Source of the DNA: Candidatus Tayloriibacteriota bacterium
Lineage (GTDB): Bacteria > Patescibacteriota > Minisyncoccia > Phycocordibacterales > PALSA-1337
DNA: 64,000 nucleotides
Direction: 5' to 3'
NCBI GenBank assembly: GCA_903857825.1
Contig: CAIOGI010000001.1
Coordinates: 127,410-191,409 of the forward strand
The notes under the pieces were generated by a model, which worked only from the letters and a program-made list of their open reading frames with translations, was not told the DNA's origin and did no database searches. This document shows positions 20,449 through 62,507 of the stretch, piece after piece. Position numbers and translations under genes: made by a program. Position 1 is the stretch's first letter. Every line of letters starts with the position of its first letter.

Positions 20449-20970
20449 TTACTCATTAAATCCAATTCTTACAGCTGATGGAAGCATTTCCTTTTTTGGC
20501 TCACTAAGCAGTTTCTTTATCGCCTTGAATATAATTTGAAAGTTTTCACCGTATTCCTTTTCCATTTTTTCAATTTTATTACGTATCTCGGAATTAGAGG
20601 ACATAATCTCTCTTAATTTTACAAATGTTCTCATGATTTGAATGTTAACATGTATTGCTCTGGTACTATTCAATATACCAGAAAGCATAGCAATTCCTTG
20701 TTCAGTAAAGACATAAGGGGTATGACCACCTAAATATTTTCTAGATGGTATCACATTTTGTGATACCATGGTGTCAATTTCGTCTTCATTTAGTTTGAAC
20801 ATAAAGTCATCTGGTAGACGCTCAATATTCCTTTTAATCTGTTGTCGTAGAACAATAGGCTTAACCTCGTAAAGCATTGCTATGTCTTTATCGAGTATAA
20901 CTTTTTTACCTCTTACAAACATGATTTTGCTTTGAATAATTTCCTCCGGAATAATTTCTTTATTTATCAT
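20449..20970 (-). CDS. ORF6N-domain protein (phage/mobile-element associated DNA-binding domain)
   Basis: ...IMFVRGKKVILDKDIAMLYEVKPIVLRQQIKRNIERLPDDFMFKLNEDEIDTM...YVFTEQGIAMLSGILNSTRAIHVNIQIMRTF is the ORF6N signature. Confidence 0.6.
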   Translation of the reverse strand: MINKEIIPEEIIQSKIMFVRGKKVILDKDIAMLYEVKPIVLRQQIKRNIERLPDDFMFKLNEDEIDTMVSQNVIPSRKYLGGHTPYVFTEQGIAMLSGILNSTRAIHVNIQIMRTFVKLREIMSSNSEIRNKIEKMEKEYGENFQIIFKAIKKLLSEPKKEMLPSAVRIGFNE

Positions 20971-22121: not shown

Positions 22122-25100
22122 ATGAACGAAGAACAAAAACCACAAGCCTCAGAGCAGGCGAAACAAACAAATCAGCCAACACAATCATCAAATCCACCCA
22201 TTCAAAAGTCCAAGATTTCTGAAACTGAGGAAAAGATTCTTGCATTCTGGGAAAAGAATGAGATTTTCAAAAAATCACTAGAAAAGCCATCACCAAAAGG
22301 GGAGTTCGTCTTTTATGATGGACCACCTTTCGCTACTGGAGAGCCACATTATGGTCACGTAGTTCCAGGTACCGTAAAGGACGTCATACCACGCTTCAAG
22401 ACCATGCAGGGATATCATGTGCCTCGTCGTTGGGGTTGGGATTGTCATGGCTTGCCAGTAGAAAATATTGTTGAGAAGGAACTCAAGCTCGCTTCAAAGA
22501 AAGACATCGTTGACTACGGTATTGGAAATTTCAATGCAAAGGCACAGGGCAGTGTGATGCGATATGCAGATGATTGGAGAAGAATAATTCCTCGTCTAGG
22601 AAGATGGGCGGATATGGATGATGATTATAGAACAATGGATGCTACTTACACTGAGTCAGTATGGTGGGCTTTTTCTGAACTCCACAAGAAGGGTTTGATA
22701 TACGAGGGATTCAAGTCAATGAATCTGTGTCCTCGTTGTGAGACCACACTTTCAAATTTCGAAGTGAGTCAGGGTTATAAAGACATAACAGATATTTCAG
22801 TTACTGTTGAATTTAAATTAAAAGGAGAGCAAAATATTTCTTTCCTTGCTTGGACAACTACACCTTGGACTTTGCCTGGGAATGTTGCTCTAGCTGTTAA
22901 TCCTAAGTTTGACTATGTAGAGATCGAGAAGAAAGATGAAGGCAAGGGAGAACTGGTCAGGTTTATTCTCGGAAAAGATAGATTGAAAAGCGTATTCAAA
23001 GATGATCAATATACTGTTGTCCGAGAAATGAAGGGCTCAGAACTCGTGGGCAAGTCATACGAGCCGGTTTTTGATTATTATTCAAATGACAAGAAACTCA
23101 AGAATATAGAAAATGGCTGGAAGGTCTATGAAGCTGATTTCGTAACCACGGAAGATGGTACTGGCATTGTTCATATTGCTCCTGCTTTTGGTGGAGATGA
23201 TTACGAACTTTCCTTAAAGCACAACTTACCTTTCATACAACATGTTGGCACAAACGGTAAATTCAAAAGTGAGGTTAAGGATTTTGCAGGACAAGATGTA
23301 AAGCCAATAGATACAAAGGAAGAGAAAGACGCACATCAAAAGGCTGATATTGAAATCATTAAGCACCTTGCTCATAATGGAAGTCTTTTTGCGAAAGAGA
23401 AACTTATACACTCATATCCACATTGTTGGAGATGCAATACTCCGCTGTTAAATTATGCTGCATCGTCTTGGTTTGTGAAGGTAACTGCTTTACGCGACAA
23501 GCTTGTGAAGGAAAACAAGAAAGTAAAATGGATTCCAGAGGAAATCGGAGAGGGAAGATTTGGTAATTGGCTTCTCGGAGCTCGAGATTGGGCTATTTCA
23601 CGTTCAAGATTCTGGGGTGCACCACTACCAGTATGGAGAGATGAAAAGACAGAGGAAATAAAGGTCCTTTCATCGGTTGAAGATTTAAAGAAATATAGTA
23701 GACCAAAAAACACATACTTTGTATGTCGTCATGGAGAAGCGGACAATAACACAAAGTCCATCATAAGTTCTCTTGCTACAAACCCACATCATCTTTCTGA
23801 AAAGGGTAAGGTTCAAGCGGCCGAAGCTGGAAAGTGGCTTCACGACAAGAAAATTGACCTTATTATCTCTTCACCTTTCTTGCGAACCAGAGAAACTGCA
23901 GAAATAATTGCTAATAAAATAGGTTACGATGTAAAGAAAATAATTTTCGAAAATAAAATTGGTGAAATAAATGCGGGGGTTTGGAATAATAAATCACTCG
24001 ACGACTTTATTGTTTTTTTCAAGGGTCAGGATAGATTCGTGGCGACTCCAGAAGGGGGAGAGAATTATGTGGACATAAAGAAAAGAGTTGGTGACTTTAT
24101 CTATGCTCTTGAAAACAAGTATAAGGACAAGAAAATTTTGATTGTCACTCACGATACTCCAATGCTCCTGCTAAAGACAGTTGCGCTAGGACTAAACAGG
24201 GAAGAGTCAAATAAATTACACAAAATGCATCAGGATGAAAAGCATTATAATAGCAATGCAAAGCCTTTTAGTCTTGATTTTCATCCATTACCTCACAATG
24301 CTGAATACGAATTAGACTTACACCGACCTTTCATTGATGATATAGAACTAACTTCTGAAAAGGGGAATAGATTAAAAAGAATTCCAGAGGTGTTTGATTG
24401 TTGGTTCGAGTCCGGAGCTATGCCTTTTGGATCAAATCATTATCCATTTGATAAATGCAATTTCAATCCTAAGCCAGGTCCATTCAGCAAAATTCTTGGT
24501 AAGACAAAGGGATATCCCGCAGACTTTATCGCAGAAGGTCTGGATCAAACCCGTGGCTGGTTCTATTCTATGCTTGTCTTAGGCGTGGCATTGTTCGATA
24601 AGTCTCCATTCAAGAAAGTTGTTGTAAATGGCCTAGTCCTCGCAGAAGATGGTCAGAAAATGTCCAAGTCAAAGAAAAACTATCCTGATTTAATGTTAAT
24701 TGTTAATAAGTATGGCGCAGATGCTTTGAGATATTATCTCATGTCTTCACCAGTCGTACATGCGCAGGATTCCTGCTTTATAGAAAAAGGAGTTGATGAA
24801 GTTGTGAAGAAGCATATTGGTCGCCTAAACAATGTCGTCACATTCTACGAAATGTATGCTACTGCCCCTGTAAAAGACGTGGCAAGTACAAATGTATTAG
24901 ATATTTGGATAATGACTAGACTTGCAGAACTTACGAAAGAAGTTACAGAAAATCTCGAGAAATATGAAATCGATAGAGCAGTCAGACCTTTTGCTGATTT
25001 TATCGACGATCTTTCTACTTGGTATTTGCGACGATCTCGAGATCGTTTCAAGGGTGATAATGAAAAGGACAAAGAGATGGCCTTGGCTACGACTCGTAAT

Positions 25101-25721
25101 GTTATTCTTGGCTTGGTGAAACTTCTCGCACCATTTATGCCTTTTGTTGCAGACGATATTTATCTAAGGGTGAAGGATAAAGAAAATCTACTGAAGGAGA
25201 GTGTTCACTTAGAGTCATGGCCTGAGGTAAAGAAATTTGATTCAAAGATAATTGAGTCAATGTCTGAAGTTAGAAAGGTTGCGTCTCTTGGTCTAGAAGC
25301 TAGAATGAAAGCGAAGATAAATGTGCGCCAACCTTTAGCTAGAATAAGTGTCGAGTCTATTTTGCCTGCAGAATTTTTTGATCTTATAAAAGATGAAGTG
25401 AATGTAAAAGAAATAGTTTCTGATCATACCCTTGCGGGGCAGGTGGCTCTCGATCTCGTTATTACTCCAGAGTTAAAAGAGGAAGGAACTATTCGTGAGC
25501 TGATACGAGCTGTTCAGGATTTGAGAAAGGAAAGAGGTTTGACTATACAAGATCGTGTCGTCTTAACTGTTGATACCGAAAAGACATTTGCTGATTTAAT
25601 TGAAAAAAATAAAAACACTATTTCTAGTGCTACGCTTTTGAAAGATATTGTTTTTGGAAAGTTGGGAGGTGAAGCTGTAAATATCGGGGATATGATGGTG
25701 AAGATAGAGGTGGGGAGGTAG
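22122..25721 (+). CDS. ileS: isoleucyl-tRNA synthetase carrying an inserted histidine phosphatase (PGM-family) domain
   Basis: HIGH motif PHYGHV; the HCWRC region; ISRSRFWGAPLPVW; DCWFESG; KMSKSKKN; C-terminal anticodon-binding region. Between ISRSRFWG and DCWFESG there is a ~180-aa block with RHGE (CRHGEADNN), SSPFLRTRETAEII, and IVTHDTPM. Confidence 0.9.
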   Translation: MNEEQKPQASEQAKQTNQPTQSSNPPIQKSKISETEEKILAFWEKNEIFKKSLEKPSPKGEFVFYDGPPFATGEPHYGHVVPGTVKDVIPRFKTMQGYHVPRRWGWDCHGLPVENIVEKELKLASKKDIVDYGIGNFNAKAQGSVMRYADDWRRIIPRLGRWADMDDDYRTMDATYTESVWWAFSELHKKGLIYEGFKSMNLCPRCETTLSNFEVSQGYKDITDISVTVEFKLKGEQNISFLAWTTTPWTLPGNVALAVNPKFDYVEIEKKDEGKGELVRFILGKDRLKSVFKDDQYTVVREMKGSELVGKSYEPVFDYYSNDKKLKNIENGWKVYEADFVTTEDGTGIVHIAPAFGGDDYELSLKHNLPFIQHVGTNGKFKSEVKDFAGQDVKPIDTKEEKDAHQKADIEIIKHLAHNGSLFAKEKLIHSYPHCWRCNTPLLNYAASSWFVKVTALRDKLVKENKKVKWIPEEIGEGRFGNWLLGARDWAISRSRFWGAPLPVWRDEKTEEIKVLSSVEDLKKYSRPKNTYFVCRHGEADNNTKSIISSLATNPHHLSEKGKVQAAEAGKWLHDKKIDLIISSPFLRTRETAEIIANKIGYDVKKIIFENKIGEINAGVWNNKSLDDFIVFFKGQDRFVATPEGGENYVDIKKRVGDFIYALENKYKDKKILIVTHDTPMLLLKTVALGLNREESNKLHKMHQDEKHYNSNAKPFSLDFHPLPHNAEYELDLHRPFIDDIELTSEKGNRLKRIPEVFDCWFESGAMPFGSNHYPFDKCNFNPKPGPFSKILGKTKGYPADFIAEGLDQTRGWFYSMLVLGVALFDKSPFKKVVVNGLVLAEDGQKMSKSKKNYPDLMLIVNKYGADALRYYLMSSPVVHAQDSCFIEKGVDEVVKKHIGRLNNVVTFYEMYATAPVKDVASTNVLDIWIMTRLAELTKEVTENLEKYEIDRAVRPFADFIDDLSTWYLRRSRDRFKGDNEKDKEMALATTRNVILGLVKLLAPFMPFVADDIYLRVKDKENLLKESVHLESWPEVKKFDSKIIESMSEVRKVASLGLEARMKAKINVRQPLARISVESILPAEFFDLIKDEVNVKEIVSDHTLAGQVALDLVITPELKEEGTIRELIRAVQDLRKERGLTIQDRVVLTVDTEKTFADLIEKNKNTISSATLLKDIVFGKLGGEAVNIGDMMVKIEVGR
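23700..24300 (+). other. embedded histidine phosphatase (phosphoglycerate-mutase family) domain within ileS
   Basis: NTYFVCRHGEADNN...LSEKGKVQAAEAGKWLHDKKIDLIISSPFLRTRETAEIIANKIGYDV...ATPEGGENYVDIKKRVGDFIYAL...ILIVTHDTPMLLL aligns block-for-block with the RHG / second-His signatures of GpmB/CobC-type phosphatases. Confidence 0.7.
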
Positions 25722-25739
25722 GGGGGTGGCAGACTAAAA

Positions 25740-26110
25740 ATAAGATAAATATAAAAGGTACCAACACTCGCTGGTACCTTGTCGGTTCTTGGTATCAGCA
25801 CTTTTTTACGCTGTACCTCGAACCCAGCCCCGATAGACATTGCTGGACTGTCCGCATCCAACTGAACTTGCAATCTCGTCTCAGTCGGCATCGATTTTTA
25901 CCTATCCTTCCGCCCCCGATTAATAATGAGGGAAGTCGTCGGAGAATCGATGGGCCAGTCTGGGCCTGTCTTCTTGTGTGGTGACCATGGCGCGCGCGGT
26001 GCGCGAGCGGCGGCGGATGGGCCCGGAAGCTCTCGGATTACCCCGGATGGTACCCGAGACCGTGCCCCGCGTGTAGTTTGGTACACCGAAGGAGACTTAC
26101 ATACCATATC
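25740..26110. other. GC-rich (~60%) structured element, candidate ncRNA of unresolved identity
   Basis: Sharp compositional island in a ~33% GC genome. It contains the hairpin ggtaccaacactcgctggtacc and stretches gagggaagtcgtcggag, ggtgcgcgagcgg and ggattaccccggatgg. The only ORFs are two overlapping Arg/Ala/Pro-rich ~70-aa frames on opposite strands. A terminator hairpin follows at 26166-26190. Confidence 0.35.
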
Positions 26111-26165
26111 ACAGCCAGTATATTTGTCAAGTGTTTTTTAATTATCCCAAATAGCTTACAATTAA

Positions 26166-26190
26166 ATGGCTAAATATAGCCATCTTTTTA
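26166..26190 (+). terminator. intrinsic terminator
   Basis: atggctaaatatagccatcttttta forms a stem atggcta/tagccat followed by a U-run. Confidence 0.45.
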
Positions 26191-26219
26191 ATTAGCTAAA
26201 TAATTGTTTTGGTATTACT

Positions 26220-26735
26220 ATGCATCACATCTACACAACTCCAGCTTTCATTGTCCACAGTGCTCCGCATGGTGAAGCGGGGAAATTTCTACTGCTTTTC
26301 ACAAAGGACTTTGGCATGATAGGTGCCGTGGCGCAGGGCATAAGACTTTCTCAGTCCAAGCTTCGCTATCATGTACAGGATTTTTCTTTTTGTATGGTTT
26401 CGATAGTGAGAGGTAAGGAGGTGTGGAGGCTTACGGGTGCGCATGAAATTGAGAAAGAAAAAAAGGTAGGTATTTTGCATATAAAAATATTAAAACTTCT
26501 CAAACGACTTCTTCAAGGGGAAGAGAAAAATGAAAATCTTTTCGGGATAGTGAAGAAATTGTATGAAAGTGAAATAATTGATGAAGAGATGATGGAATGT
26601 GTTTACATTTTAAAAATACTAAACTCCCTCGGATATGTTCCAGATGGAGATTTACAATTAATTGATAGTGCTAAAGAGAATAAGTCAAAAATTATTAAGG
26701 TGATTAACTCTGCTCTCAAAGAGAGTCAATTGTGA
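26220..26735 (+). CDS. recO: short DNA repair protein RecO (N-terminal OB-fold only)
   Basis: PAFIVHSAPHGEAGKFLLLFTKDFGMIGAVAQGIRLSQSKLRYHVQDFSFCMVSIVRGKEVWRL matches the RecO N-terminal OB-fold pattern. It is only 171 aa. Confidence 0.5.
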   Translation: MHHIYTTPAFIVHSAPHGEAGKFLLLFTKDFGMIGAVAQGIRLSQSKLRYHVQDFSFCMVSIVRGKEVWRLTGAHEIEKEKKVGILHIKILKLLKRLLQGEEKNENLFGIVKKLYESEIIDEEMMECVYILKILNSLGYVPDGDLQLIDSAKENKSKIIKVINSALKESQL

Positions 26736-30063: not shown

Positions 30064-30324
30064 TTATTTGTAGATATCGTGATCGCCGACATCCATTAAA
30101 GCAATTTCTTTATTTGGTAAATATTTAAAAATAATTCTATATTTATAGTTAACATACAGACTATGTTTATCTTTAATTTTTCCATGCAATTTATGTACCT
30201 TGATTGATTTATGTTTGTCTCTATCTTTGAGCATCTCAATCTTTTCTAATACTTCAGACTTGAGACTCTTATCAAGCTTATCATAAGCTTTCATGAAGCT
30301 TGGAGTATAATTTATCTCAATCAT
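30064..30324 (-). CDS. type II toxin, RelE/ParE superfamily (paralog of 5702..5965)
   Basis: The 86-aa product MIEINYTPSFMKAYDKLDKSLKSEVLEKIEML...HSLYVNYKYRIIFKYLPNKEIALMDVGDHDIYK is clearly homologous to the 5702 toxin. It overlaps the antitoxin gene by 4 nt. Confidence 0.6.
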   Translation of the reverse strand: MIEINYTPSFMKAYDKLDKSLKSEVLEKIEMLKDRDKHKSIKVHKLHGKIKDKHSLYVNYKYRIIFKYLPNKEIALMDVGDHDIYK

Positions 30325-30545
30325 TTCCTTAACTTTTTTACTAACTCGTCTAAGTCTCCCTTAAACAGTTTACCCTCCGTAATTTCTTTTTCAGCTTGGA
30401 GTAATGTCTCAATAGCCTCATTTTCACGAAACTTTTCTAATGCTTTTCTAACAAGCTGTGCTTTATTTTCGAAGTTACCGACTCGCACCTCATTTTCTAT
30501 GTATTCCACCATATTTGGTGGTAGGGGAACAGATATTGTAGTCAT
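30321..30545 (-). CDS. type II antitoxin, RHH (paralog of 5457..5678)
   Basis: ORF 30321..30617; the likely start is MTTISVPLPPNMVEYIENEVRVGNFENKAQLVRKALEKF (Met25). It shares the MTTIS(I/V)PL N-terminus with the other antitoxin. An ATGATATCAT palindrome lies upstream. Confidence 0.55.
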   Translation of the reverse strand: MTTISVPLPPNMVEYIENEVRVGNFENKAQLVRKALEKFRENEAIETLLQAEKEITEGKLFKGDLDELVKKLRK

Positions 30546-30696
30546 GTTTTTGTTTATTAAATGTATGATAATGTAATATGATGATATCATATATGTGGTT
30601 TGAGTCGATATTGACATACTTAACCTGGTATGTTTATCTTAAGTCTGGAACCAGACCTAGGTCTGACAACTGTTCCTTAACTCAAACGAAAGTATT

Positions 30697-30984
30697 ATGA
30701 TGAATTCGCCATTTCCCACTTATGTTCCCAGGATTGGGGACCTTGTCCGAGTAACTCCTGAAAAAGTGGACTACGTTACCTATCACTACAGATATTTTTG
30801 TGAGGAGGCGTATGTTACGAGTCGATTCCTCGGAGTCGACTATGAAGGCAAGACGGTCATCCTCTGCTCACTTGGTGGGCGAATGCTGATCGAACCACTG
30901 CGGTTTAACCTTGAAAACCAAATGTGCTTAACAGTGTTTGATAAGTACGACAGAATTGTGAACATCGAAGTCGTCTTGGAGTGA
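30697..30984 (+). CDS. hypothetical protein in a locally GC-elevated (~48%) segment
   Basis: 95-aa ORF whose composition differs from its neighbours; no recognisable motif. Confidence 0.3.
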   Translation: MMNSPFPTYVPRIGDLVRVTPEKVDYVTYHYRYFCEEAYVTSRFLGVDYEGKTVILCSLGGRMLIEPLRFNLENQMCLTVFDKYDRIVNIEVVLE

Positions 30985-31109
30985 TGATGGATACGCGAAA
31001 AAATCGTTCTAAGTTACTACACCGGTGGGCGCCTAATAAGCGTCCGCCTTTTCTTTTATATATAAAACATAATTAAGCAAAAAAACTTCAAATATGCTAC
31101 ATTTATTTA

Positions 31110-56531: not shown

Positions 56532-57373
56532 ACTCACTACACAGAAATATGTTAAAAAACTTCAATTTTAAACGGCAATAATTACGCTTTAATAGAGTGT
56601 AGAGATTGTCCGTCAAAAAGACGGTTTTTTTGTAAAAAATCTGGGGTAAAACCTAGATAACTGAACGACTGACACATTGACAATTTAATACCTCAACAAT
56701 TTCAACAATCAGGAGGTTGTTGGGGAAAAAAGGTAATACTAGGATGTGTATATATTATGAGGGTTTTTTCGAATATATGCATTGAATAGTAAGTTGTAAG
56801 TTGTAGACAAATAATTGTGGTTTTTAGATTTCCTAATGGGAAATTTAAGAGTATATGGTGGATGCCTTGGCTTCTAAGAAGCGATGAAGGACGTGGCGTG
56901 GCGACGATATGTTTCGGGGAGGTGCCTAGCAACCTTTGATCCGAAAATTTCCGAATGAGGAAACTCTCTGACTTCGAGTCAGAATTAACACGCTTGACGT
57001 GTTAATGCACACCCAGGGAAGTAAAACATTTCAGTACCTGGAGGAATAGAGACAAATATGTATTTCGTGAGTAGCGGCGAGCGAAAGCGAAAGAGCCCAA
57101 ACTCAACCTTAATCGTATTATGGGACGCAGTTTATTCTGTTGTCTTGTAATGCGATTAAGGTTGGGGGTTATAAGGTGAGAACGTACCATTTATGGTAGG
57201 AAAGTTACAAAATTTTTTGATAGAAGAATCTGCTGGAAAGCAGAGCCCCAGAAGGTGATAGCCCTGTAGTCGAAATCAAAAAATCTTTCTTGTTCTTATT
57301 CTTGAGTACCTCGAGACACGAATGGCTCGGGGGAATTTGCCGGAACTAACCGGTAAGGCTAAATATTCTAGAA

Positions 57374-57413
<40 letters not shown>

Positions 57414-57986
57414 CAGCCCGGTAAGGGCGATGAAATAGACCTGAAACCATATATTTACAAGGAGTAGAAGAGGTAGCAATACCTCGACTGCGTGCCTATT
57501 GAAGAATGAGCCAACGAGTTGATGCATGTTGCAGGCTAAGCGCGAGAGCGTGGAGCCATAGGGAAACCGAGTGTGAATAGCGCGTTAGTAGTATGCATCA
57601 GACCCGAAGCCAGATGAGCTTGCCTTGAGCAGGTTGAAGTTTGTCGAAAGACAGATGGAGGACCGAACGCTAAAGTTGTGCAATTCTTTGCGATGACTTG
57701 AGGTAAGGAGTGATAAGCTAATCGAATCTGGTAATAGCTGGTTCTCTCCGAAATAGCTTTTGGGCTAGCGTTGAACGTACCCCTCTGGGGTAGAGCACTG
57801 GAAGGTCTCGACAGGTCGAAAGATCACGAGACCTATCAAACTCCGAATACAGAGGATTAACTATTCAGCAGTTAGACGGTGGGGGCTAAGCTCCATACGT
57901 CAAAAAGGAAACAGCCTAGATCTCCATTTAAGGTCCCTAAATTCATGTTAAGTACGCTTAAGGTGGTTGAATTTCTCAAACAATGA

Positions 57987-58018
<32 letters not shown>

Positions 58019-58828
58019 GAAAGCGTAACAGCTCACTCATCGAGAGATTCTGCGCCGCAGATAATCGGGGTTAAACATGATACCGAAACTGAGGATGTGC
58101 TTTTGCTTCGGCAAGAGTACGTGGTAGGAGAGTATTCTAATCTGCGTTGAAGGCAAAGGCGTGAGCCATGCTGGAGCGTTTAGAAGTAAGAATGTTGGCA
58201 CAAGTAACCACAATGCGGGTGAGAATCCCGCACGCCGAAAGAACAAGGTTTCCTTGGCTATGAAAATCAGCCAAGGGTTAGTCGGGCCTAAGGGGATGGT
58301 GAAAACCGCACCCGATGGACACATGGTTAATATTCCATGACTTTTATGTAGAGTGACGGAGTGACGAAGTGCAGTATATGACGCTCATTATTGGATTTGA
58401 GTGCATGCTATAGGGGATTGACACAGGAAAATCCGTGTCGTGTCTTTAATGACAATTCCGAGTAGAGTGTAAAGGTAGGGGTTCGCCCTTATTTATGTCG
58501 TAAAGCGCGCTTCCGAGAAAAACTTCTAAACTTATCTATATAGAAACCGTACCGCAAACCGACACAGGTGTTCAGGTCGAGTAGACCAAGGCGAACGAGT
58601 GAGAGGTCTCCAAGGAACTCGGCAAAAAATCAGCCGTAACTTCGGAATAAGGCTTGCCCTTCGCAAGAAGGGCCGCAGCTAAAGTATCTCTGGCAACTGT
58701 TTATCAAAAACACAGCTCCCTGCGAACTCGTAAGAGGATGTATAGGGGGTGACACTTGACCAATGCCCGAAGGTCAAATATCGACGTTGTATTGTCGCAA
58801 GATGATATGGTGATTGATATAAGCCCGG

Positions 58829-58863
<35 letters not shown>

Positions 58864-59086
58864 TCTGAGTTTGTCTTCGGATGAACTCAGACGGACTAGG
58901 ACTGTTATATAGCAAAAGTGATTCGTTTTTAGATAAATTAGATTAAAATATTACATAAACAAGCTACCTGCATATGAGTAATCATATGCTGAGTCCATTG
59001 CAGTTAAATAGAGACCAACACTGCACATCCGATCTCCGTAAGGAAAGGATGAAGATAGAGTCCATCTGTGCTTAAAGGAATAGATG
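58864..59086 (+). mobile_element. ORF-less ~223-nt insertion in 23S at the conserved AAGGU|AGCGAAAUU junction (E. coli ~1917 region); candidate small intron/IVS
   Basis: The exon sequence ...ggtcctaaggt resumes as agcgaaattccttgtcaggtaagttctgac after 223 nt. The insert contains no ORF. Confidence 0.5.
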
Positions 59087-59655
59087 AGCGAAATTCCTTG
59101 TCAGGTAAGTTCTGACGCGCACGAATAGTGTAATGTCTGGAGAACTGTCTCGGAGACTTGCTCGGTGAAAATACAATATCGGTGAAGATGCCGATTACCT
59201 ACAGTTAGACGAAAAGACCCTAGAAGCTTTACTGCAACTTGATTTTGACTATATGTTTTTTATGCGTAGCGTAGATGGGAGGATTTGAAGTTTTCTTTTC
59301 GGAGAAGATGGATCCGCAAGTGAAATACCATTCTTAACAAATATATATTCTAACCTCGACGGCAAAAACGACGAGAGACAGAATCTGGCGGGCAGTTTTA
59401 GTGGGGCGCTATCCTCCTAAAAAGTAACGGAGGAGTTTATTAAGGTCAGCTAGGCGCGAATGGAAACCGTGCCGATAGTGTATAGGCATAAGCTGGCTTG
59501 ACTGTGAGACGTACTTGTCAAACAGATGCGAAAGCAGAACTAAGTGAACCGACCTTACGCATTAGACGCGGGGGAAGATTATCGGATAAAAGCTACTCTA
59601 GGGATAACAGGCTGGTTGTGCCTAAGAGTTCATATCGACGGCACAGTTCGGCACC

Positions 59656-60534
59656 TTAACTCTTGACTTAAACATCAGGAAACATCGGGGTGCCTAGAAC
59701 AGTAATGTTCTAAGTTCTTTGCACTATTAAATTTAAGTGGCAAAGTTCAAATATTTGGCTTATAACGGTGGACTCCATAAACAAGCTATTGTGTCATTAT
59801 AAAAATGATATAATAAAATTTATATGGACAATACCGCGGGAAGTCTATCTCAAATACAAAAATCAGTAATTATTGGATCACTATTAGGTGATGGGTATTT
59901 AAGAATCGTTCCAGGTAGAAAGAATGCCTTTTTGGAAGTGAATCATTCATTTTCACAAAAGGATTATGTAGACTGGAAATATTCAATACTAAAAGATATT
60001 ACTGTAAGTGCTCCAAAGAAGCGTGTCATAGATAAAGTAAGAGTTGCTTATCGTTTTTATACGAGACAGCATCCTGAAATTACTGAGTTATATAAAATGT
60101 TTTATAAGAATGGTGTAAAAATCATTCCAGATAATCTTAATATAACTCCGCTTTCATTGGCAGTGTGGTTCATGGATGATGGTAGTAAATGTAGAAAAAC
60201 TGATGTTTATTTAAACACTCAGCAATTCAATCATTGTGATCAATTAAAATTAATTGATTTGCTTAAGAAATTTAATCTTGAAGCTCGACTAAATAAGGAT
60301 AAAATATATACCAGAATACGGTTTATAAAATCTAGTTTACTAGAGTTTAAAAGATTGATTAACGAATACATTATTCCATCTATGAAATATAAAATTGAGA
60401 TATGACCCTGTAGAGACTTGATCTTAACTGATCAGAGTGTGGATAATATCTATGCTAACACGCCGAACTCCATAAAATGATTTATGGATGAAGATATAGT
60501 CCGATCCTTCTGGTAACAGAAGAAAATACGACAG
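59656..60534 (+). mobile_element. ~880-nt insertion (candidate group I intron) in 23S between GGCACC and UCGAUGUCGG (E. coli ~2500 region), encoding a LAGLIDADG endonuclease
   Basis: Exon ...catatcgacggcacagttcggcacc | ... | (g)cgatgtcggctcaacttatcctgggg. Confidence 0.6.
59824..60405 (+). CDS. LAGLIDADG homing endonuclease (double-motif)
   Basis: IIGSLLGDGYL (motif 1) and LAVWFMDDGSK (motif 2); 193 aa; located inside the 23S insertion. Confidence 0.8.
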   Translation: MDNTAGSLSQIQKSVIIGSLLGDGYLRIVPGRKNAFLEVNHSFSQKDYVDWKYSILKDITVSAPKKRVIDKVRVAYRFYTRQHPEITELYKMFYKNGVKIIPDNLNITPLSLAVWFMDDGSKCRKTDVYLNTQQFNHCDQLKLIDLLKKFNLEARLNKDKIYTRIRFIKSSLLEFKRLINEYIIPSMKYKIEI

Positions 60535-61149: not shown

Positions 61150-61963
61150 AAGTATTGCTACTTCACAAAGTAATTTGTGATGACAATGTGGCTAATAACG
61201 GTGGAATCTTAATTCGTCTGTTTCGTTGATAACTTTCATTGCTCTAGTCCAGCCATGAGAGTACAATAGTGTTATTATCAATAATACTTGAGGACCAGAA
61301 ATAATTAAGACAATACCGTGGGAAGTCGATCTAATATTCATTTAGCGTATATTGCAGGATTTCTTGATGGAGATGGAAGCTTAATGCTTCAGATCAAGAA
61401 ACGAAAAGATGGAAATAAATCTAAATTCAGATTTATGCCAACAATTTGTTTTTATCAAGATACTCGGCATGAAAAGAATCTCTATTGGATTAGAGATGTC
61501 TTGAAAATTGGTTATTTATCAAAAAGAAATGATGGAATGACTGAACTTCGAATAAATGGTTATAAACAAGTAAGAGATATTCTACAAAGTTTATCACCAC
61601 ATATTAAGTTTAAGAAAATTCAAGCAGATGCTTTGAAAAAAGCATGTGATATTCTATTAAAAACAGAACTTAAACTTCTAAATAAAATACAATTAACTAA
61701 AATTGTCGATCTAATCTTAGTAATTCAGAGTGAGAATTATGTTACTAAGAAAAAGAAAACAAAAAGTGAATTGTGTCAGATATTAAATTTGACCCCGTAA
61801 CGACTTGTTTCTCTGCTCTATGTAGAGAAACGGATGTGCACATATCTGGAAAGTTTTTTCAACTGAATGAAAAAACAGGATTGTGCGCATAATACGCCAA
61901 CACCCGAAGCGAAGGCAGGGTGAAGATATAGTCTGTGCTCCTAGTGATAGGGGAATAACGCGA
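61150..61963 (+). mobile_element. ~814-nt insertion (candidate group I intron) in 23S between CUAGUA and CGAGAGGACC, encoding a LAGLIDADG endonuclease
   Basis: Exon ...gaggggatttgactctagta | ... | cgagaggaccgagttgaactgacc. Confidence 0.6.
61318..61800 (+). CDS. LAGLIDADG homing endonuclease (single-motif, I-CreI-like size)
   Basis: AYIAGFLDGDGSLML; 160 aa; located inside the 23S insertion. Confidence 0.8.
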   Translation: MGSRSNIHLAYIAGFLDGDGSLMLQIKKRKDGNKSKFRFMPTICFYQDTRHEKNLYWIRDVLKIGYLSKRNDGMTELRINGYKQVRDILQSLSPHIKFKKIQADALKKACDILLKTELKLLNKIQLTKIVDLILVIQSENYVTKKKKTKSELCQILNLTP

Positions 61964-62302: not shown

Positions 62303-62417
62303 ATTTTTTGTTCTGGTGGTTTGGCGCTGTGGAAACACCCGTTCTCATTCCGAACACGGAAGTGAAACGCAGTTGCGGCGATGATACTCGTATGAAGGGG
62401 AAAGTAGCTAGCCGCCG
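62303..62417 (+). rRNA. rrf: 5S rRNA
   Basis: tctggtggtttggcgctgtggaaacacccgttctcattccgaacacggaagtgaaacgcagttgcggcgatgatactcgtatgaaggggaaagtagctagccgccggtac. Helix I pairs with G-U wobbles. It has the CCGAACACGGAAGUGAAAC loop C motif. Confidence 0.8.
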
Positions 62418-62507
62418 GTACAAAGTATTTAATTTATAGAAAATTGAGACTTACTCATCGTGTCGAGTCTAATTTTGTTATTTTTCTTATTCTGCTATAC
62501 TTAACTT

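Follow-up and report, generated by a model that had tools for sequence, protein, structure and literature searches.

Patescibacteria (CPR) have tiny genomes and the clade has no cultured models, and to our knowledge almost nothing is known about their non-coding RNAs. The locus described here raises the question of what a short GC-rich island is doing between two housekeeping genes, ileS and recO, in one such genome; we refer to the whole stretch of DNA that was analysed, 64,000 nt in length, as the window. Its RecO homologues place it in a Taylorbacteria-like genome of the Patescibacteria/Paceibacterota. The spacer between the two genes, both of which are read on the plus strand, is 498 nt long, and it lies in a housekeeping neighbourhood that includes SHMT, argS, a DUF11 surface protein, a class II aminoacyl-tRNA synthetase, an M16 peptidase, metG and TatD. 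No integrase, transposase, reverse transcriptase, Cas, IscB, TnpB or recombinase is found among the genes near the island, the sole nearby gene hinting at mobile or phage-derived DNA being a minus-strand one at 20449-20970, situated between argS and ileS, for an ORF6N (KilA-N-like) domain protein. The isoleucyl-tRNA synthetase has a feature of its own, a histidine-phosphatase (His_Phos_1) domain inserted in the enzyme, an insertion that is also present in the relatives at comparison loci L077 and L082.

The first-pass annotation, made from the letters of the window alone, had singled out this island as the strongest compositional anomaly of the window, and so it is: among 200-nt segments, which have a mean GC content of 36.1% (sd 5.7%), the top value in the 64 kb is the 62.5% found at 25874-26073 (+4.6 sd), exceeding both the runner-up segment at 53.5% and the 23S rRNA, which reaches ~52%. 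The accompanying figure of ~60% GC over 370 nt was slightly high, the content across that length being 54-57%; by interval, it is 54.2% for 25740-26110, 56.9% for 25755-26100, 62.2% for 25900-26100 and 67.8% for 25930-26075. The other 23 intergenic gaps of the window have 24-41% GC, against 48% for the ileS-recO spacer as a whole and 72% for its richest 100 nt. No second copy of the island, such as would mark a repeat or MITE, is present within the 64-kb window. Two other places in the window deserve a mention. A second GC-rich gap (30064-31109), in which a search for RNase P also gave no match, holds small protein genes, namely a RelE/HigB-like toxin (30064-30324, minus strand) with an overlapping 98-aa partner (30321-30617, minus strand) and an orphan 95-aa ORF (30697-30984, plus strand) that is equipped with a TTGACA promoter (30611) and a terminator (31024-31048) of its own. 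The 23S rRNA (56835-59717) and 5S rRNA (62312-62420) genes lie 2.6 kb apart, and as the gap contains two LAGLIDADG homing-endonuclease ORFs (59824-60405 and 61318-61800) together with GC-richer non-coding stretches, either intron-like insertions or an unlinked 5S gene are likely.

The island does not encode a protein. Its only sizeable ORFs are a minus-strand frame of 69 aa and a plus-strand frame of 71 aa; the two overlap and are rich in Arg, Ala and Pro, in keeping with the earlier view of them as artefact frames. In comparison with the homologous spacer described below (L079), indels of 8, 1, 4, 28, 6, 7 and 5 nt break all reading frames, and it is from these non-multiple-of-three indels across every frame that we take the element to be non-coding. 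At the protein level, Pfam gives no match for the island frames, a word-indexed protein search returns a self match only, and an exhaustive phmmer search of 1.84 billion protein representatives finds only the self ORF (P0121) and repetitive low-complexity proteins. A small peptide or type I toxin was also rejected, as no ORF preceded by a Shine-Dalgarno (SD)-like motif is shared among the inserts found at this locus in relatives, and the predicted transcript itself contains no small ORF with an SD-like motif upstream. Descent from a minus-strand gene like the 575-aa ORF present in the spacer of one relative (L004) was rejected as well (tblastn E=1.5), the other ‘upstream minus ORFs’ of relatives being antisense artefacts of ileS. 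The spacer folds better than shuffled sequence on each strand (z ~ -3.1). The initial proposal of a non-coding, structured island is supported, and the island is most likely an RNA gene. An assembly chimera, which had also been considered, is unlikely, given that an identical (100%) 498-nt spacer occurs in an independent ENA assembly (L001) and that a homologue of the island is seen in three independent samples.

On which strand would such a gene lie? The first-pass annotation had read it on the plus strand, an orientation that we do not retain, as the conserved promoter and terminator both sit on the minus strand (Table 1). The predicted sigma-70-type promoter scores 10/12, with TG, in a promoter scan; promoters of this kind have a chance rate in the 64-kb window of ~4 per 128 kb of strand (~1 per 30 kb). 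RNA synthesis is predicted to start at ~26097/26096 and to yield a transcript of ~350 nt, from ~26097 to 25748. The predicted terminator begins 34 nt from the ileS stop codon; read on the plus strand, its hairpin is without a T-run, and between the window and L079 two of its pairs are altered on both sides and two by G-U. Judged on these motifs, which recur in relatives, the promoter and the terminator would delimit a stand-alone minus-strand sRNA unit.

Table 1. Features of the ileS-recO junction, in plus-strand order, with positions counted from the first letter of the window
Feature	Position	Strand	Basis and remarks
ileS	22122-25721	+	ORF and Pfam domains; flanking gene, convergent with the island RNA
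Intrinsic terminator, predicted	25736-25780	-	Scan; 11-bp hairpin (25780-25755), then U-rich tract
3' hairpin	25784-25824	-	Helices 12-13; GGUUC...GAACC around GUACAGC/GCUGAUAC
Conserved core, multi-helix junction	25831-25975	-	Helices 6-11; closed by AGACA/UGUCU, four hairpins
5' GC-rich irregular rod	25980-26087	-	RNAalifold consensus; helices 1-5, ~105 nt, ~68% GC
Short 5' leader of predicted RNA	26088-26097	-	Read from alignments
Sigma-70-type promoter, predicted	26103-26130	-	TTGACA (26130-26125), 16-nt spacer, extended -10 TGaTATGGT (26111-26103)
recO-proximal conserved block, ~70 nt	26118-26194	+	TTGTCA, TACAAT (26157-26162), hairpin ATGGCTAAATATAGCCAT (26166-26183) and T-run
recO	26220-26735	+	PF11967, 563 homologues; 171 aa, N-terminal domain only; divergent from the island RNA

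Back-to-back with the predicted promoter lies a block of ~70 nt upstream of recO, the TTGTCA of which is the complement of the minus-strand -35. No other part of the spacer is shared between lineages; identities within the block are 75-90%, and with L008, whose RecO has 62% identity, the figure is 90% over 71 nt. The block is kept whatever lies upstream, including in L004, which has a 1.9-kb spacer. It is probably the promoter and leader of recO and possibly a stop for read-through from ileS; judged by its motifs, it may combine two divergent promoters with a leader or attenuator that regulates recO. The clean plus-strand terminator originally described at 26166-26190 falls within it: a scan does find the hairpin and T-run, and as the hairpin is conserved regardless of the upstream sequence it belongs to the recO block and does not form the 3' terminus of an island RNA.

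The evidence for a structured RNA comes from a homologue present in three samples (L079-L081), in which RecO is 83-84% identical to that of the window and the spacer is 430 nt long; the spacers of L079 and the window are 69.5% identical over 466 nt, and these are the two distinct sequences from which the family is known. On the minus strand, their RNAalifold consensus has 81 pairs in 14 helices. All 81 are kept in both sequences, 12 with both sides changed, 10 with one-sided G-U-compatible changes and none broken, against 26-40% of cells that pair when partners are slid by 1-3 columns as a control, although, as the structure was derived from and tested on the same two sequences, these statistics are partly circular. 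The comparative alignment that had been suggested as a check thus does reveal compensated pairs, with the two sequences that show them also being those that define the structure. The homologue and the island have diverged roughly as fast as the genes on either side, in keeping with vertical descent.

The domains of the predicted RNA differ in how they have changed. The 5' rod is the fast-evolving part as well as the compositional peak, and its primary sequence aligns poorly with L079; all of its 25 pairs are nonetheless formed in both sequences, with seven two-sided changes and six one-sided G-U-compatible ones. In the 145-nt core, 105 of ~118 aligned positions are identical (~90%), compared with nucleotide identities of 73.7% for recO and 81.6% for the 3' end of ileS, and such an excess of conservation over the neighbouring coding sequence is the mark of purifying selection acting on an RNA. 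Inside helix 8, the window has an extra 28-nt hairpin (25903-25930) that L079 lacks. Three two-sided pair changes are preserved in the 3' hairpin. A long-range pairing of the leader, GUAAGUC (26100-26094), with GACUU (25937-25933), for which the L079 counterparts are GAGAGU and ACUCUC, would form a possible pseudoknot. A covariance model of the core scores 182 bits for the window and 149 bits for L079, with no other match in 667 kb of related loci from 98 sources.

How the ileS-recO junction is built in relatives bears on what kind of RNA this would be. The comparison set comprised 75 loci from GTDB genomes, 20 metagenome loci and nine protein look-ups, and in it recO follows ileS almost without exception. 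The two genes are 0-25 nt apart in roughly half of the lineages, and in several close ones a single nucleotide separates the ileS stop from the recO start (L077/78, with RecO 86-87% identical; L086, 81-82%; L082-84, 71%). As ileS and recO abut in these sister lineages, the island RNA must be dispensable, an accessory and not a universal stable RNA. Conservation in relatives, proposed at the outset as a test of the island, is partial: the homologue exists in L079-L081, and the closest long relatives lack the element at this locus. A metagenome scan based on RecO gave 20 loci, none closer than 64%, and a 22-base two-block pattern from the island had no match in metagenome contigs.

The remaining lineages have ileS-recO spacers of 90-900 nt with raised GC (42-53%), and 17 distinct expanded spacers from lineages with RecO at least 52% identical were used for a census of promoters and terminators. 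A minus-strand TTGAC(A/T)-N15-18-TAnnnT motif, usually with TGn, is found no more than 140 nt from recO in 14 of the 17, and a minus-strand GC hairpin followed by a T-run lies directly past the ileS stop in at least 13. Between them are bodies of 40-800 nt that cannot be aligned with one another, at least eight of them distinct, with no shared motif above shuffles among the unrelated inserts and no SD-preceded small ORF in common. These inserts have 42-59% GC and most fold better than shuffles (z -2 to -7), the minus strand having the lower z in 10 of 15. In one relative (L003, 3113-4000), the 888-nt spacer contains three successive minus-strand hairpin-plus-T-run sites, as if small transcription units were stacked. 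Elsewhere, L079 and L085 have recO genes that are 97% identical at the nucleotide level, unrelated spacers and ileS 3' ends that are 85% identical, a mismatch to be explained either by recombination with its breakpoint at the start of recO or by a short contig being chimeric.

Comparison with known RNA families was the check originally recommended, and it yields no family for the island on either strand. A cmscan of the whole window against Rfam 15 at gathering level reports only the 23S and 5S rRNAs; with permissive filters and E<=10, a 701-nt segment searched on both strands gives nothing for the island, and a 366-nt segment searched on both strands at E<=10 gives only an 11.6-bit chance match to the L31 leader, a match whose very appearance in the list indicates the depth of that search (floor ~12-20 bits). 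Among relatives, there is likewise no island match in 11 searched at gathering level or in four at E<=10. ARAGORN finds no tRNA or tmRNA in the window. Of the identities offered in the first-pass annotation, tmRNA was rejected on the ARAGORN and Rfam results, and SRP and 6S RNA were rejected as neither gives a match at E<=10 on either strand and the consensus fold is branched.

The remaining identity offered there was RNase P RNA; a strongly reduced or diverged form of it, encoded on either strand, such as has been reported for some CPR genomes, deserves a fuller hearing. In 10 of 35 circular CPR genomes, rnpB came to light only when cmsearch thresholds were set lower than the noise cut-off (Lui et al. 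2021, PMC8172020), and since some CPR RNase P RNAs thus fall below Rfam cut-offs we used comparative evidence besides thresholds. A length of ~350 nt would fit, and the long-range AAGUC/GACUU pairing is pseudoknot-like and covaries in L079. The quoted words are all present: beside a hairpin at 25757, these are gggaagtcgtcggag at 25930, ggtgcgcgagcg at 25998, ggattaccccgg at 26035, acaccgaaggagacttac at 26083 and, in the recO block, ATGGCTAAATATAGCCAT at 26166. The RNase-P-like ones, however, sit in the parts that are least conserved between the window and L079, the single homologue found, and are not kept there. The supposed CR-I word GGGAAGUC reads GAGAGUUG in L079, the second P4 candidate GGAGACUUAC reads GAAGACUCUC, both flanking the 28-nt indel, and the region of the GGUGCGCGAGCG word cannot be aligned at all. 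Taking as the criterion for P4 an invariant CR-I (GGAAAGUCC-like) paired with CR-V, we find that the candidate pairing covaries but that its sequences are not the invariant ones and its topology differs: the ‘P4 5' strand’ lies in a local hairpin loop, 5 nt from the closing strand of that hairpin, so that the helix order is mismatched, and the AAGUC/GACUU pairing links a hairpin loop to the transcript end, unlike the P2/P4 arrangement. The conserved core contains no P4, CR-IV or CR-V-like sequence, and at E<=10 no RNase P model matches the 366-nt segment, the homologue or the inserts of L085, L087 and L165. The locus is, moreover, empty of this RNA in L077, L086 and L082 (this being the one locus considered in them) and holds non-homologous RNAs in others, and since an essential, universal RNA would not be expected to give way to unrelated sequences at the same promoter, we regard RNase P as extremely improbable here. 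A decayed fragment of foreign, higher-GC DNA, be it a gene remnant or the scar of a mobile element with no present function, is also very improbable in our view. Such an origin, likewise put forward in the first-pass annotation, would explain a composition far from that of the genome, the patchy presence among relatives and the 63-aa ‘hypothetical protein’ (P0121) that some pipelines call there. Against it, blastn with plasmids and phages gives no match, two core 15-16-mers scanned in viral contigs give only seed-length chance matches, the protein-level searches are as empty as described above, and neither an integrase nor a transposase lies nearby. It is also shared with L079, from which it differs by compensatory substitutions and at the pace of the flanking genes, and its core is highly conserved.

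Two further rivals accept that the spacer is transcribed and differ over what the transcript would be. A functional RNA on the plus strand, in the form of an ileS 3'-UTR or read-through RNA ending at 26166-26190, draws on the terminator-like site there, on the stretch from the ileS stop to this site having no other canonical terminator on that strand, on the plus-strand fold of the whole spacer (z -3.1) and on the CAUCGA.../...UCGAUG helix, which U-G pairs lengthen on the plus strand. Against it, the 26166 hairpin stands in the recO-proximal block, behind the conserved TACAAT and independent of upstream content, and its counterpart is not terminator-like in several insert-bearing lineages (L085, L087). 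The structural comparison also favours the minus strand, with a consensus energy of -87 kcal/mol against -74 for plus, 12 compensated pairs against 8, and folding z-scores of -2.4 against -1.3 in the window and -5.6 against -2.7 in L079. G-U/A-C asymmetry was tried as a strand test and was not decisive, G-U accounting for 12 of 162 cells in the minus consensus and 14 of 154 in the plus consensus, values that leave the strands unseparated. Overall, we find the plus-strand reading improbable. The main rival treats the transcript as a by-product: recO would have gained a promoter of its own in these lineages, within a bidirectional block, with the minus-strand promoter firing as its mirror image, the terminator shielding ileS from antisense transcription and the body being filler. 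This is consistent with the same frame enclosing unrelated bodies of 40-800 nt without a shared motif, and with the entire module being missing in many relatives; a promoter-terminator frame around unrelated bodies could indicate that what counts is transcription itself more than its product. Filler in a 36% GC genome should, however, drift AT-ward, as the other gaps have (24-41% GC), whereas the inserts have 42-59% GC and mostly fold better than shuffles, and in the island the core has changed less than the coding DNA beside it, with stems that vary by compensation. For the island itself we consider a by-product unlikely, and it remains a plausible account of the locus as a whole.

The reading that we prefer, and hold to be probable though well short of certain, is that the island is a free-standing minus-strand gene for a structured non-coding RNA of ~350 nt, accessory and restricted to its lineage. 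Its predicted transcription would initiate at the strong sigma-70-type promoter, back-to-back with the block upstream of recO, and run toward ileS to end at the hairpin and U-tract just short of the ileS stop codon. The product would have a short 5' leader, a ~105-nt rod, a ~145-nt junction, a 3' hairpin and the terminator. The rod, which would evolve fast yet keep its pairing, may have a role in stability, and the conserved junction would be the likely functional surface, through protein binding or tertiary structure. At a guess, the RNA acts in trans via this junction, either by binding a protein or by base-pairing. None of the 47 ORF starts in the window has an SD-like motif within 20 nt upstream, and in many of the 47 a -10-like box precedes the ATG by 6-12 nt, a pattern which suggests that leaderless mRNAs predominate in the window. 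With no SD motif at any of the 47, occlusion of Shine-Dalgarno sites is unlikely, and an anti-Shine-Dalgarno mechanism for the UCUCC/CUUCCC motifs was dropped.

A bolder proposal concerns the junction more than the island: in the Paceibacteria clade to which this genome belongs it may be a dedicated ‘RNA slot’, a promoter-terminator frame that is maintained around a body exchanged or invented anew from lineage to lineage. The two genomes that share 97% identical recO and have unrelated bodies would, if no chimeric contig is involved, illustrate such replacement. We put this forward as speculation that is unlikely to hold. Were it true, the 350-nt RNA of the window would be one allele among others, the turnover would suggest diversifying pressure, for example from phage defence or from the interaction of an episymbiont with its host cell, and the junction would represent a new kind of variable non-coding locus. 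A large, strongly constrained yet dispensable RNA, at a locus where related genomes retain promoter and terminator and differ in the body between them, is a concrete candidate for checks in metatranscriptomes and for a covariance-model survey of CPR genomes. There is also a lesson for annotation, in that resemblance of a few words is insufficient for an RNase-P-sized GC-rich island in a CPR genome to be annotated as rnpB.

Set beside known systems, the island shares individual traits with several. With RNase P RNA (RF00010/RF00011, including the diverged CPR forms of PMC8172020) it has in common its size, its GC-richness in an AT-rich genome, a multi-helix architecture and one possible long-range pairing, and it differs in matching no model, in its unconserved words, in helix order and in occupying a dispensable, variable locus. 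Like 6S RNA (RF00013), it has the look of a stable RNA driven by a strong promoter, and the rod that makes up its 5' domain is long and irregular; unlike 6S RNA, it has no Rfam match, is branched and not a single rod with a central bubble, and is twice the length. The guide-plus-scaffold RNAs, exemplified by HEARO/IscB omega RNA (RF02033), offer a parallel in their variable 5' part and conserved, structured 3' scaffold, although the island has no Rfam match and no IscB, TnpB, Cas or recombinase nearby, and its variable part is a paired rod in place of a single-stranded guide. Closest in kind are the orphan sRNAs transcribed from sigma-70 promoters to intrinsic terminators, which similarly occupy their own intergenic unit with a strong -35, an extended -10 and a Rho-independent 3' end, have a narrow phylogenetic distribution and stand out by raised GC and structure in an AT-rich genome. 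At ~350 nt and with a large conserved multi-helix junction, the island RNA is larger and more elaborately built than base-pairing sRNAs typically are, and in a window without Shine-Dalgarno motifs the usual logic of their target sites does not apply; we take it as a narrow RNA family that is new in itself and belongs to a kind already known in general.
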